From IMG/VR virus record IMGVR_UViG_2713896782_000017: a DNA stretch of 5,821 nucleotides; one strand, written 5' to 3'. Source of the stretch: a virus. Its lineage: Duplodnaviria; Heunggongvirae; Uroviricota; Caudoviricetes. The position numbers and the translations under genes were made by a program. Below, piece by piece: positions 588 through 4,871 of this stretch; the stretch's first letter is position 1, and every line of letters begins with the position of its first letter. The notes under the pieces were generated by a model. That model made no database searches and was not told where the DNA came from. It worked only from the letters and a program-made list of their open reading frames with translations.

Positions 588-1226
588 ATGAACAAGCAAA
601 CAATATCTGAACGCATAACCCAACGTATGCATGCGCTAAACTTGAAAGGCAAAGACCTTGTCAATGCCACTGGCGCATCAAAAGGCTCCGTAAGTCAATG
701 GATGAACGGTGGAGGAGCGCCGTCCTCGCGTTACATAAGTTCACTGGCAAAGATATTGAAAGTAAACGAAAATTGGCTTCTTAATGGAGGAGAGTTAAAT
801 ACAGGTGATTCGCTTGATCTATCTTTACCGCCGATAAAAACGGTTCCGCTACTATCACTTCAGCAGGCAGCAAGCTGGAGTGATTATATGAAAAATTCCT
901 CAATAACCTCTTGTGTGCAGCTTGTCGGAGAAATCCCGGCCAATACCTTTGCTGTTGTTCTAGAGAGTGACAGTATGTCGACATCTGGTGGTGGAGTTTC
1001 CATCCCAAATGGTTCAACAGTTTTTGTTGATCCCGATCGAATCGTACAACCAGGAAATATTGTCCTTGCCTTACCCAAAGGGACCACAACGCCTGTCATT
1101 CGCAAACTGGAGATAGAAGGGCCGGATATTCTTTTAGTCCCCACGAATCCTCGCTACCCTTCAATTATGCTGGATGATCTATCTTGCATATTGGGAGTAT
1201 GCTTTAAAATTCAACAAGATATTTAA
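588..1226 (+). CDS. CI-like prophage repressor: N-terminal XRE-type HTH plus C-terminal LexA/S24 autopeptidase domain, 212 aa
   Basis: Complete ORF. N-terminal HTH (QRMHALNLKGKDLVNATGASKGSVSQWMNGG). The C-terminal part aligns by eye with lambda CI: SDSM against GNSM (catalytic Ser), PVIRKLEIEG against FTFKKLIRDSG (catalytic Lys), LLVPTNPRYPSIM against FLQPLNPQYPMIP. Divergent from the Cro-like gene. The linker has QQAASW where lambda CI has VQAGMF, so a canonical Ala-Gly cleavage site is not evident. Confidence 0.85.
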   Translation: MNKQTISERITQRMHALNLKGKDLVNATGASKGSVSQWMNGGGAPSSRYISSLAKILKVNENWLLNGGELNTGDSLDLSLPPIKTVPLLSLQQAASWSDYMKNSSITSCVQLVGEIPANTFAVVLESDSMSTSGGGVSIPNGSTVFVDPDRIVQPGNIVLALPKGTTTPVIRKLEIEGPDILLVPTNPRYPSIMLDDLSCILGVCFKIQQDI

Positions 1227-1286: not shown

Positions 1287-1339
1287 TTAAAATGTTTTGA
1301 TAAAAAAACATTGACCTTAAATGTTCGTTTTTCTAAACT
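1287..1339 (+). promoter_or_regulatory. Candidate sigma70 promoter (dicBp-like) with an upstream operator-like motif, driving the ydfA-to-dicB gene string
   Basis: -35 TTGACC (1311..1316), 17 bp spacer, -10 TAAACT (1334..1339), preceded by an A/T-rich UP-like stretch. Immediately upstream, TTAAAAT-GTTTTGAT (1287..1301) contains the reverse complement of the ATCAAAAC 8-mer found twice in the cro-cI intergenic region, and shares the TTAAAAT heptamer with the site at 575..581. Confidence 0.4.
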
Positions 1340-2858: not shown

Positions 2859-2908
2859 NNNNNNNNNNNNNNNNNNNNNNNNNNNNNNNNNNNNNNNNNN
2901 NNNNNNNN
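2859..2908. other. Run of 50 N (assembly gap or masked sequence) flanked by an identical 15 bp direct repeat
   Basis: N from 2859 to 2908. CGCTGCAACGCCCTC occurs at 2844..2858 and again at 2909..2923, consistent with two contig ends that overlap by at least 15 bp being joined with an arbitrary gap, or with a collapsed tandem repeat. Confidence 0.9.
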
Positions 2909-2933
2909 CGCTGCAACGCCCTCTGTTATCAAT

Positions 2934-2991
2934 TTTCTGGTGACGTTTGGCGGTATCAGTTTTACTCCGTGGCTGCTCTGCCGCCCTTTTT
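2934..2991 (+). ncRNA. dicF: DicF small regulatory RNA (Hfq-dependent, prophage-encoded; represses ftsZ and other targets)
   Basis: TTTCTGGTGACGTTTGGCGGTATCAGTTTTACTCCGTGGCTGCTCTGCCGCCC followed by TTTTT matches the DicF sequence as I recall it, with one apparent A-to-G difference. It ends in a GC-rich stem plus U-tract and lies about 170 bp upstream of dicB, as in Qin. Confidence 0.8.
2949..2991 (+). terminator. Intrinsic terminator forming the 3' end of DicF
   Basis: GGCGG (2949..2953) pairs with CCGCC within GCCGCC (2980..2985), with an internal CAG/CUG pairing, followed by a T5 run (2987..2991). Confidence 0.6.
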
Positions 2992-3084
2992 AAAGTGAAT
3001 TTTGTGATGCGGTGAATGCGGCTAAGCGCACGCGGAACAGTTAAAACCAAAAACAGTGTTATGGGTGGATTCTCTGTATCCGGC

Positions 3085-3116
3085 GTTAATTGTTAACTGG
3101 TTAACGTCACCTGGAG
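3085..3116 (+). promoter_or_regulatory. Palindrome cluster and DicF-complementary segment in the dicB leader
   Basis: GTTAA-TTG-TTAAC (3085..3097) and GTTAAC (3100..3105), followed by AACGTCACC (3103..3111), the exact reverse complement of DicF positions 2939..2947. With G-U pairs and one U-U mismatch the complementarity extends to about 13 bp (2934..2947 against 3103..3116). Confidence 0.4.
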
Positions 3117-3160
3117 GCACCAGGCACTGCATCACAAAATTCATTGTTGAGGACGCGATA

Positions 3161-3349
3161 ATGGAAACGTTATTACCAAACGTTAATACGTCTGAAGGTT
3201 GTTTTGATATTGGTGTTCTGCTCAGTAACCGGGAGTTTACTGAAGATGCCATTAACATGAGGAAATATGAGCCTTATCTGCTCAATGATAATTCCATACT
3301 TTCCCGAATTGCTCTTCTTGAACTTGGTATTTTCGGAGAACGTCAATGA
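3161..3349 (+). CDS. dicB: Cell-division inhibitor DicB (MinC-activating small protein), 62 aa
   Basis: ATG at 3161 with GAGGA 7 nt upstream. The N-terminus METLLPNVNTSEGCFDIGV...FTEDAIN matches Qin DicB as I recall it (METLLPNVNTSEGCFEIGV...); the C-terminal half diverges. The ORF track entry 3056..3349 carries a 5' extension from an upstream GTG/TTG-type start that I do not accept. Directly downstream of dicF. Confidence 0.8.
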   Translation: METLLPNVNTSEGCFDIGVLLSNREFTEDAINMRKYEPYLLNDNSILSRIALLELGIFGERQ

Positions 3350-3534
3350 CTTCAGCATTTGCACTGATGATGACGGTTTTTCTTATAACGGGTGAATCAC
3401 AGAATGTGATTACCGGAATTTATGCCAGTAAAGAATCCTGCCTCCAGGCAAGAGACGAGCAAAAAATTTCTGGTGAATGCCTCCCGGTAAAAAAAGTATC
3501 GCTGTACCTGAATAACGAAACACCGGCTGGATAA
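3346..3534 (+). CDS. ydfD: YdfD-like small membrane protein (Qin prophage lysis/toxic protein family), 62 aa
   Basis: Start overlaps the dicB stop (ATGA, 4 nt overlap) and has GGAGAA 5 nt upstream. N-terminal hydrophobic segment SAFALMMTVFLITG, with the remainder hydrophilic and two Cys. Size and position match ydfD of Qin; the sequence itself is not verified. Confidence 0.65.
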   Translation: MTSAFALMMTVFLITGESQNVITGIYASKESCLQARDEQKISGECLPVKKVSLYLNNETPAG

Positions 3535-3626
3535 CCCTCCAGCCATATTAACACCATACCAACGGATTAAAAATGCCAGCAATGGCAGGGATTTGTTCAC
3601 CCTTAAATCTGTAATGAGGTTTATCA

Positions 3627-4871
3627 ATGAGCACTGATAAAGAAGAATTTGCGCTATATTGCGAAGCAAAAAATGACAAAGTCAGAAAACGTCTGGGAAT
3701 TAAAGGTGGTTTTTACTGGACTACAGCAAAAAAATTATCTGTTGCCATCTCCCGCTGCATTACCGCAATGGATGACAACGATTATGATGAAGACGACTTT
3801 AAAAAACCCGTTCGCGTCCATTTACCCGTTGTGAATGACCTTCCACCTGAAGGCGTGTTTGATACCGAATTCTGCAACCGATACGAAAAAGGCGGGGAAG
3901 ATGGCATTACAATGGTATTTATCGCGCCCTCTCCCTCCGTGCAGGAGAAACCAGCCAGTACTGACAATACCAACGTCAACGGCGAAGACATGACGGAGAT
4001 TGAGGAGAATATGCTCCTGCCGGTTTCTGGTCAGGAGCTGCCCATTCGCTGGCTTGCGCAACACGGCAGCGAAAAACCAGTAACGCACGTTGCACGGGAA
4101 GAACTTCAGGCATTACATATAGCACGGGCGGAAGAACTGCCGGCTGTTACTGCCTTGGCCATTTCTCACAAAACAAAGCTGCTCGACCCGCTGGAGATTC
4201 GCGACCTTCACAAACTGGTACGCGACACTGACAAAGTTTTCCCTAATCCCGGTAATTCAGACCTGGGACTGATAACTGCTTTTTTCGAGGCATACCTGGA
4301 CGCTGACTACACTGATCGGGGTCTGCTGACAAAAGAGTGGATGAAAGGAAATCGTGTTTCGCGTATCACCCGTACGGCTTCCGGTGCAAATGCCGGTGGC
4401 GGGAACAAAACCGATCGCAATCCGAATTTAGTACACACCTTCGATACGCTGGATGTGGAGATTGCAGCAGCCACACTTCCGATGGATTTTAATATTTATG
4501 AAATTCCGGGCAGCGTTTATCGTCGCGCAAAAGAAATCGTCCTGAAAAGAGAAAGTCCGTTCAAAGAATGGTCCGCAGCACTTCGCGCAACCCCGGGTAT
4601 TCTGGACTATTCCCGCGCCGCTATTTTTGCACTTATCCGGAGCGCTCACCCTGAGTTTTATCACTACCCGGGACGCCTTCAGGGGTATATCAACGCCTAC
4701 TTAACGGAGACTGATCACGAGAACCCCAGCAAGGAAACTCTCACTGCTGCACGACATACACCGGAAAAAGATATCCTGGAAGAAGTTAACCGCGAACTGT
4801 CTGCTAAGCAGGAAACAGAAGAAGAAAATGATGAAGAAAAACCGCAACCATCTTGCGCAATGGCAGAATGA
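3627..4871 (+). CDS. Hypothetical protein, 414 aa, with a strongly acidic C-terminal tail; positional equivalent of Qin ydfE, here uninterrupted
   Basis: Long complete ORF with GAGG 7 nt upstream of the ATG. No transmembrane segment, no Walker A motif (GGGNKT is not GxxxxGK[ST]), and no integrase-like motifs. C-terminus EEENDEEKPQ. All overlapping ORFs in the track are shorter internal or antisense frames. Confidence 0.7.
   Translation: MSTDKEEFALYCEAKNDKVRKRLGIKGGFYWTTAKKLSVAISRCITAMDDNDYDEDDFKKPVRVHLPVVNDLPPEGVFDTEFCNRYEKGGEDGITMVFIAPSPSVQEKPASTDNTNVNGEDMTEIEENMLLPVSGQELPIRWLAQHGSEKPVTHVAREELQALHIARAEELPAVTALAISHKTKLLDPLEIRDLHKLVRDTDKVFPNPGNSDLGLITAFFEAYLDADYTDRGLLTKEWMKGNRVSRITRTASGANAGGGNKTDRNPNLVHTFDTLDVEIAAATLPMDFNIYEIPGSVYRRAKEIVLKRESPFKEWSAALRATPGILDYSRAAIFALIRSAHPEFYHYPGRLQGYINAYLTETDHENPSKETLTAARHTPEKDILEEVNRELSAKQETEEENDEEKPQPSCAMAE

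Follow-up and report, generated by a model that had tools for sequence, protein, structure and literature searches.

Among the closest described systems is the dicBF locus of the Qin prophage of Escherichia coli K-12 (b1574-b1575-b1576), an operon under Rem/DicA control (PMC10448788). The processing of the K-12 DicF small RNA has been described (PMC10448788; PMC5069750), and its RNase III form is 72 nt long (PMC5069750). K-12 DicB depends on MinC: it inhibits Z-ring formation by way of ZipA and also blocks ManYZ, and with it the phage entry that requires ManYZ (PMC6832061). Judging by the title of Cam et al. 1988, as cited in PMC8835842, K-12 dicB is made from an internal in-phase start. Induction of K-12 YdfD leads to lysis; the protein binds IspG, and rescue is provided by DicB or SulA (PMC8835842). 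The end residues of K-12 YdfD are needed for full killing, and cells survived the N1A and L63A variants and one-residue deletions at either end (PMC8835842).

Multiple dicBF loci are carried by O157:H7 Sakai and EDL933 (PMC5069750). Four expressed DicF orthologues in O157:H7 are cited by Ragunathan and Vanderpool 2019 (PMC6832061), and according to work cited in that paper the O157:H7 copies are expressed and regulate virulence. In an O157:H7 strain, deletion of dicB changed VBNC formation (PMC6915034).

The window and its counterpart in Sp11

The stretch of DNA analyzed here, referred to as the window, is 5,821 nt long and, apart from a run of 50 N, was 100% identical to O157:H7 Sakai, EDL933, Xuzhou21, TR01 and many others. 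In Sakai it corresponds to the early, left-hand arm of Sp11, a lambda-like prophage, together with the first gene of the adjoining prophage, Sp12. Sakai Sp11 and the EDL933 and TR01 equivalents are the same locus, with no biological difference from the window; Sakai has an extra IS629 within the neighboring dinI-like gene of Sp12.

The leftmost gene, at 254-496 on the minus strand, is P22-Cro-like and is followed on the plus strand by an ORF of 212 aa (588..1226) encoding a CI-like repressor with a helix-turn-helix (HTH) and an S24 peptidase domain (PF00717, PF01381). Next come ydfA/DUF1391 (1519-1671), a phage ORF of 216 aa (1671-2321) and, on the minus strand, an ORF of 73 aa (2322-2543). 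To the right of the 73-aa ORF lie the dicF precursor region and the cassette itself (dicF, dicB and a ydfD-like gene), and these are followed by recE, an integrase fragment and, at the right end of the window, the start only of the dinI-like gene. Sp11 is defective: its recE is cut short at 414 aa, and no more than a fragment of the integrase is left. Expression of the early operon of this prophage is therefore not guaranteed.

The gene order and spacing of the K-12 Qin locus, namely dicF, a 174-nt leader, dicB, an ATGA overlap and ydfD, were also found in the window, and both ydfA and the dicF precursor region that lie upstream in Qin are conserved. The 216-aa ORF and the opposite-strand 73-aa ORF stand in the place of Qin ydfB and ydfC, and the gene after the ydfD-like gene is the truncated recE, whereas ydfE/IS2 is found at this position in K-12 Qin. 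The region is read, with a probability of roughly 0.85, as a standard dicBF cassette of a lambdoid prophage, situated in the early-left (pL-type) operon, this copy being the one in the defective O157:H7 Sp11. The first-pass annotation of the sequence had reported dicF, dicB and ydfD as all present and apparently intact; matches to RF00039, PF05358 and PF07358 established the identity and intactness of the three genes, and the coordinates that it gave were accurate.

DicF, the N run upstream and the dicB leader

The DicF small RNA was placed at 2934..2986 on the plus strand, using RF00039 and transfer of the K-12 b1574 annotation, and comprises 53 nt including an intrinsic terminator hairpin (stem at about 2949-2985). 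A cmscan search, which had been proposed as a check of the DicF assignment, found RF00039 at 2935-2986 on the plus strand with 75.0 bits against a gathering score of 48 (E 9e-16, model positions 1-52 of 52). A terminator-like site at 2969-2984 leads into a run of T (CCTTTTT). The RefSeq records fetched for the Sp11 locus contain no DicF feature.

The sole difference from K-12 DicF is A39G at 2972, so that the terminator stem has U.G instead of U-A at its top. The predicted fold is the same as that of K-12 DicF, and the hairpin energies are -15.4 kcal/mol for the window and -15.9 kcal/mol for K-12. When both versions were paired by RNAduplex with the ftsZ leader (positions -60 to +40), the predicted duplex was equally stable (-38.5 kcal/mol), with the A39G base unpaired; the ftsZ target in this prediction was that of K-12. 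Over the dicF precursor region, 2700-2933, identity to K-12 is about 97%.

The 50-N run (2859..2908) ends 26 nt upstream of dicF and is flanked by a duplicated 15-mer, CGCTGCAACGCCCTC (2844-2858 and 2909-2923). Compared with complete genomes, the window has 65 extra positions, which are the 50 N and the second copy of the 15-mer. The possibility was considered that these extra positions mark a real insertion or rearrangement in the source strain, which would leave dicF-dicB-ydfD cut off from its promoter and from the RNase III site upstream. However, exactly 50 N between identical 15-mers is the signature left by a scaffolder for overlapping contig ends, and the dicF region is present 7-9 times per O157 genome, a setting in which assemblers break. 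Moreover, every complete genome examined is contiguous at the gap site; TR01 and K-12, for example, continue across it with one copy of CGCTGCAACGCCCTC. A rearrangement is highly improbable, and comparison with the complete genomes indicates that the N run is a place where two overlapping contigs were joined in scaffolding and that nothing was inserted there. The adjacency of the two halves of the window is likewise taken from the complete genomes. An IS629 insertion at the gap was rejected, the extra 1.3 kb of Sakai being located in the dinI-like gene of Sp12.

The spacer between dicF and dicB (2987..3160, plus strand) constitutes the dicB leader, which folding prediction and comparison with K-12 showed to be 174 nt long and highly structured. 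Its minimum free energy was -70.1 kcal/mol (z -5.98), and none of 200 shuffled sequences was as stable. A stem of 28 bp was predicted in which 2987-3014 pairs with 3125-3153, burying the dicB Shine-Dalgarno sequence GAGGA (3149-3153). When the 72-nt RNase III form of DicF is placed on the window, it would end near 3005, within this stem. Two leader positions vary among related loci, 3010 (C/T) and 3128 (T/C), and the pairing is kept in both cases, as the first variant changes a C-G to a U.G pair and the second a G.U to a G-C pair. The leader is 98.5% identical to that of K-12, and since the K-12 leader is almost unchanged, the structure is not specific to the window.

The leader also gave a full-length match to STnc100 (RF02076) with 34.7 bits and an E value of 7e-5. 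The STnc100/PasD small RNAs have a closing stem and a CACC-GGAGGCACC-GG hairpin in common with the dicB leader. However, the match falls short of the gathering score (47) and the genomic context is different, the published STnc100 copies being located either downstream of stx2 or close to Fels-1-type genes and not in a dicF-dicB spacer. Identification of the leader as STnc100 was therefore rejected.

The junction inside dicB and the ydfD-like gene

The dicB gene (3161..3349, plus strand; WP_000449175.1, ECs_2214) encodes 62 aa and belongs to the O157 or 'type B' C-terminal class. The ORF matched PF05358 with 125.5 bits (cut-off 27) over positions 1-62 of 62. The NCBIfam DicB model NF049927 scored the window protein at 114.2 bits and K-12 DicB at 132.8 bits, with a cut-off of 100. 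The ATG at 3161 has its own Shine-Dalgarno sequence, GAGGA at 3149-3153, and lies in frame within an upstream ORF that begins at a GTG (3056), as in K-12.

Alignment of the protein with K-12 DicB extended over the full length, with 39/62 residues identical (E 4e-24). The identities are unevenly distributed, 27/34 in residues 1-34 and 12/28 in residues 35-62, which agrees with the earlier description of a conserved N-terminal and a divergent C-terminal half. The source of this pattern was established by comparing the window with K-12 DNA in blocks of 30 nt. Identity is 98-100% (29-30/30 nt per block) from a point upstream of dicF as far as about 3208, so that the first 16 dicB codons are within the K-12-like segment. 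A short variable patch follows at 3209-3238, and from about 3265 through the end of ydfD identity is about 50% (10-20/30 nt per block), which places the junction zone inside dicB, at 3209..3268. These comparisons indicate that the divergent DicB C-terminus is a phage recombination mosaic junction inside dicB that covers all of ydfD, and not a change specific to the tail. Up to about codon 17-35 of dicB, the DNA is the segment common to K-12 Qin, while the remainder of dicB, with the whole of ydfD, belongs to another, old allelic lineage that is frequent in prophages of Shiga-toxin-producing E. coli (STEC). A frameshift was considered as the origin of the different tail and rejected, since the reading frame is unchanged and the DNA has diverged by about 50%, in ydfD as well as in the tail.

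A BLASTP comparison of the two 28-aa tails alone gave no alignment, which was not taken as non-homology. When the tails were compared in register and ungapped, the 12/28 identities gave a BLOSUM62 score of 31, whereas the mean of shuffled sequences was -25. Because a score of 31 was reached by only 2/100000 shuffles, the two tail classes are held to be homologous in register on the strength of this comparison, despite the BLASTP result. Nei-Gojobori dN/dS values in three segments were 0.11/0.26, 0.79/1.94 and 0.53/1.36, dN being lower than dS throughout; dS is saturated in the diverged part, where the values are rough. An AlphaFold2 model of DicB built on a 34-sequence alignment had a mean pLDDT of 74 and four short helices, and Foldseek found no match to this model in the PDB.

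When 34 full-length family members were aligned, residues 1-37 were nearly invariant and residues 38-62 fell into two discrete classes, EPYLLNDNSILSRIALLELGIFGERQ and ERELLNKICIVSMLARLRLMPKGCAQ. It is conceivable, though unlikely, that the alternative C-terminal class is functionally diverged, the N-terminal half keeping MinC binding and the tail serving another partner or setting another strength. The divergence could take the form of septal targeting other than by ZipA, an altered effect on ManYZ, or antagonism matched to its own YdfD class. The tail is 12/28 identical to K-12 while the N-terminal residues hardly vary across the family, the two classes are discrete with no continuum between them, the tail and ydfD usually travel together, and K-12 DicB counteracts YdfD lysis (PMC8835842), all of which would fit such a divergence. 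However, both classes keep E37, L40, L41, I46, S48 and A51 and have the same hydrophobic/polar pattern, as expected of one fold drifting under structural constraint. Chimeras were found in both directions (P0005; P0066-P0071), suggesting that the halves are interchangeable, and linkage of the tail to ydfD is expected from adjacency alone. Furthermore, strains with either class share MinC, ZipA and ManYZ as host core proteins, so that selection for a new specificity is not obvious. It is accordingly unlikely that the tail classes are functional variants in which residues 1-37 hold MinC and the tail sets the ZipA/ManYZ partner or the pairing with a cognate YdfD. That the tail might alter MinC or ManYZ specificity, as had been suggested in the first-pass annotation, is speculation. 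The literature was searched for MinC binding, filamentation or phage exclusion by the window allele and for residue mapping of DicB, and none was found. If the divergence were real, O157-type prophages would deliver a differently tuned division block or superinfection exclusion than K-12 Qin.

Beyond the mosaic junction lies the ydfD-like DUF1482 gene (3346..3534, plus strand; WP_000199475.1, ECs_2215), which encodes 62 aa. The ORF matched PF07358 with 56.3 bits (cut-off 25) over residues 4-61 and phrog_1092 with 116.5 bits. Alignment with K-12 YdfD, another check that had been proposed, gave 28/62 identical residues (45%, E 3e-20), the window protein being one residue shorter. The hydrophobic N-terminus, the two cysteines and the EQKI-G-C-P motif of K-12 YdfD are kept. 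The 4-nt ATGA coupling to dicB that had been noted was read directly in the sequence, where the ydfD ATG (3346-3348) overlaps the dicB TGA (3347-3349); the same overlap is found in K-12. A Shine-Dalgarno-like GGAGAA (3334-3339) lies upstream of the start.

At its ends the window protein (MTSAF...PAG) differs from the K-12 protein (MNSAF) in having T2 for N2, and it lacks the final L63. By analogy with the K-12 end residues, the absence of N2 and L63 lowers confidence that the window protein is lytic, without excluding lysis, and transfer of function is weaker for YdfD than for DicB. The description of YdfD as a small lytic membrane protein holds for the K-12 protein but does not carry over securely to a homologue that is 45% identical and has neither residue. 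PGAP calls the window type only 'DUF1482 family protein', whereas the K-12 type is called 'lysis protein YdfD'.

Control, distribution and role of the cassette

A promoter scan and a palindrome search were employed to locate the start of the operon. A candidate operator, TGTTTT-N6-AAAACA (1293-1310), abuts a promoter-like TTGACC-17-TAAACT (1311-1339), the whole element occupying 1293..1339 on the plus strand. A second exact copy of the palindrome is located at 571-588, in the spacer between cro and the repressor gene. There is no other in the window and there was none in 200 shuffles, the pattern having been picked after the sequence was viewed. From the consensus matches and the palindrome, on which the promoter and operator call rests, 1293-1339 is likely the equivalent of pL/dicBp, driving ydfA through dicF-dicB-ydfD.

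The K-12 dicA/dicC immunity region could not be aligned with the window until about 30 nt before ydfA, and the CI-like repressor has weak similarity to the N-terminal part of DicA. K-12 Qin uses DicA, whereas the repressor of the window combines a CI-like HTH and an S24 domain and has candidate operators of its own. The 212-aa ORF is probably the repressor of the operon, with an immunity type different from that of K-12 DicA. Its S24 autocleavage domain suggests that the operon may be SOS-inducible, unlike that of Qin.

Transcription would most likely start at about 1311-1339, from a promoter that is under repressor control and lies downstream of the gene for the CI-like repressor. The transcript is expected to run through ydfA (1519-1671), the 216-aa ORF, the dicF precursor, dicF, the structured leader, dicB and ydfD. 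DicB, translated from the ATG at 3161, would bind MinC and bring it to the septal ring, so that division is blocked, and the ydfD-like gene would be translationally coupled to dicB by the ATGA overlap. In this scheme the transcription start, the processing, the action on MinC, ZipA and ManYZ, and lysis are carried over from K-12 work and are expected by analogy.

The frequency of the two allele classes was established in 5426 complete E. coli genomes. Some part of 2909-3540 was matched in 4645 of them, and at least 80% of the query in 997; most of the remaining matching genomes stop at window position 3265. The window-type 3' half of dicB with ydfD was found in 844/5426 genomes (about 16%), at 1373 places and up to 4 per genome, mostly in STEC serotypes such as O157, O145, O45 and O103. 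The equivalent K-12-type segment was found in 3965/5426 (about 73%). In a large protein collection, DicB relatives were almost all from Escherichia, with few from Salmonella and Citrobacter. A scan of one genome per species yielded 7 DicB loci, all in Escherichia/Shigella except for one misbinned MAG.

An identical DicB is encoded on 76/80 sampled IMG/VR contigs, a sample so uniform in DicB that it is of little use for typing the linkage of tail and ydfD or for covariation. Phage relatives were found as well. The PPompW prophages, from records of STEC Stx2a-converting phages, encode a DicB of the same C-terminal class with 95% identity, and a small hypothetical gene comes after it. In mEp460, Tritos and related induced coliphages, DicB is 65-72% identical and matched over residues 1-53 or 1-55 only, which indicates that functional phages too carry divergent forms of the protein.

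The gene at 3161-3349 is named dicB in RefSeq, as 'cell division inhibition protein', and the 'dicB' primers used in O157:H7 strain work (EDL933; PMC6915034) match the window exactly at 3161-3182 and 3327-3349. The locus is already annotated, published and very common, and the DicB tail of the window is the second of two standard allele classes. The unusualness implied by the first-pass annotation was not supported, the exact sequence being the annotated dicB locus of Sp11 in Sakai and of the equivalent prophage in EDL933 and TR01, and the allele class recurring at the frequencies given above.

The state of Sp11 raises the question of whether the cassette is a silent relic of a decaying prophage, its ORFs intact only by recency, with no DicB/YdfD-like role in O157:H7. 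The truncated recE and the integrase fragment would be compatible with decay. So would the IMG/VR loci, among which four with an identical DicB have a ydfD start changed from ATG to ATA, a few have a truncated ydfD, and 19/80 are without DicF within 400 nt. However, DicB is unchanged on nearly all of the sampled viral contigs, the allele is widespread and often multicopy, dN is lower than dS, and the leader, Shine-Dalgarno and coupling signals are conserved. Moreover, the O157:H7 DicF copies are reported, in the work cited in PMC6832061, to be expressed and to regulate virulence, and the dicB deletion in an O157:H7 strain altered VBNC formation (PMC6915034). A silent relic is quite improbable, and the reading as a standard dicBF cassette is preferred.

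Apart from getting the annotation right, the finding is of limited importance. O157:H7 has several dicBF copies, of which this locus is one, and the DicF RNAs of these copies have been linked to the regulation of virulence. K-12 DicB and YdfD, the basis of all mechanistic work, represent one of two common classes, found in about 73% of complete genomes as against 16% for the other.

Independent reshuffling of dicF, dicB and ydfD

The three members of the module, dicF (2934-2986), dicB (3161-3349) and the ydfD-like gene (3346-3534), are each reshuffled independently. In L015, one of the sampled dicB loci, and in three other IMG/VR loci, an identical DicB is followed by a ydfD that has lost its start codon through the change of the ATGA overlap to ATAA. 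Truncated forms of ydfD accompany an identical DicB on other IMG/VR contigs (loci L014, L059 and L079). At least five DicF sequences were found together with the identical DicB in the IMG/VR loci, and in 19 of the 80 loci sampled there was no DicF within 400 nt. The match to a second PHROG family, phrog_24763 (a profile of 72 positions), was limited to residues 1-35 of DicB (window 3161-3265), which aligned with profile positions 36-70. This partial match may be a further sign of a recurrent recombination or truncation point in the middle of dicB. A dicB locus was also found in a metagenome-assembled genome labelled Veillonella parvula (L087, JAGZPX010000007.1), where the leader is 98.5% identical to that of the window; almost certainly this contig comes from an Escherichia prophage and was misbinned.

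The dicF-dicB leader and the scaffold gap upstream of dicF

The leader between dicF and dicB (2987-3160) has 98.5% identity to K-12, a conservation above that of the coding sequence. Its predicted fold has a free energy of -70.1 kcal/mol (z -5.98), and in this fold the SD sequence of dicB is sequestered by a 28-bp stem. The leader gave a full-length, sub-threshold match to STnc100 (RF02076), with 34.7 bits compared to a gathering score of 47 and an E value of 7e-5, and the similarity may hint at a distant relationship to the STnc100/PasD prophage RNAs.

A run of 50 Ns at 2859-2908, located 26 nt upstream of dicF, is flanked by identical 15-mers (2844-2858 and 2909-2923). Complete genomes have a single copy of the 15-mer and uninterrupted sequence at the equivalent of 2859-2908. 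The run marks a scaffold gap in a multi-copy repeat, through which the window is lengthened by 65 artificial positions.

Repressor gene, candidate operators and the right end

The repressor is encoded by an open frame of 212 residues (588-1226), with an HTH at residues 17-64 and an S24 peptidase domain. The corresponding RefSeq/Sakai CDS (ECs_2209, "LexA family protein") covers the final 113 residues only (888-1226). The start looks annotated too far downstream because about 300 nt of the ORF, with the part that encodes the HTH, are left without annotation. The palindrome TGTTTT-N6-AAAACA is present in two exact copies, one in the cro/repressor spacer adjoining the repressor start codon (571-588), and the other (1293-1310) adjoining the -35-like TTGACC of a promoter-like site at 1311-1339. 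The pattern, which was picked after inspection of the sequence, occurred in none of 200 shuffles. The two copies are candidates for the OR/OL operators of Sp11 immunity.

Within 3627-5404, a RecE-like ORF ends at 414 residues, where the matching PHROG exonuclease profile has 883 positions, and is overlapped by a 183-residue integrase fragment without its N-terminus. It looks as though recE was joined to int by a deletion at the left end of Sp11, and the join is consistent with a prophage that is unable to excise. A DinI-like ORF (5582-5821) continues past the right edge of the window; in the Sakai annotation it is part of Sp12, the neighbouring prophage, and is broken there by IS629/IS1203.

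ORFs between ydfA and dicF

Whereas K-12 carries ydfB and ydfC, the window has in their place a 216-residue ORF on the plus strand (1671-2321, phrog_2151) and a convergent 73-residue ORF on the minus strand (2322-2543, phrog_4274), both of unknown function. A promoter-like site on the minus strand (2559-2530) lies directly upstream of the 73-residue ORF, and a transcript initiated there would run antisense to the dicB operon.
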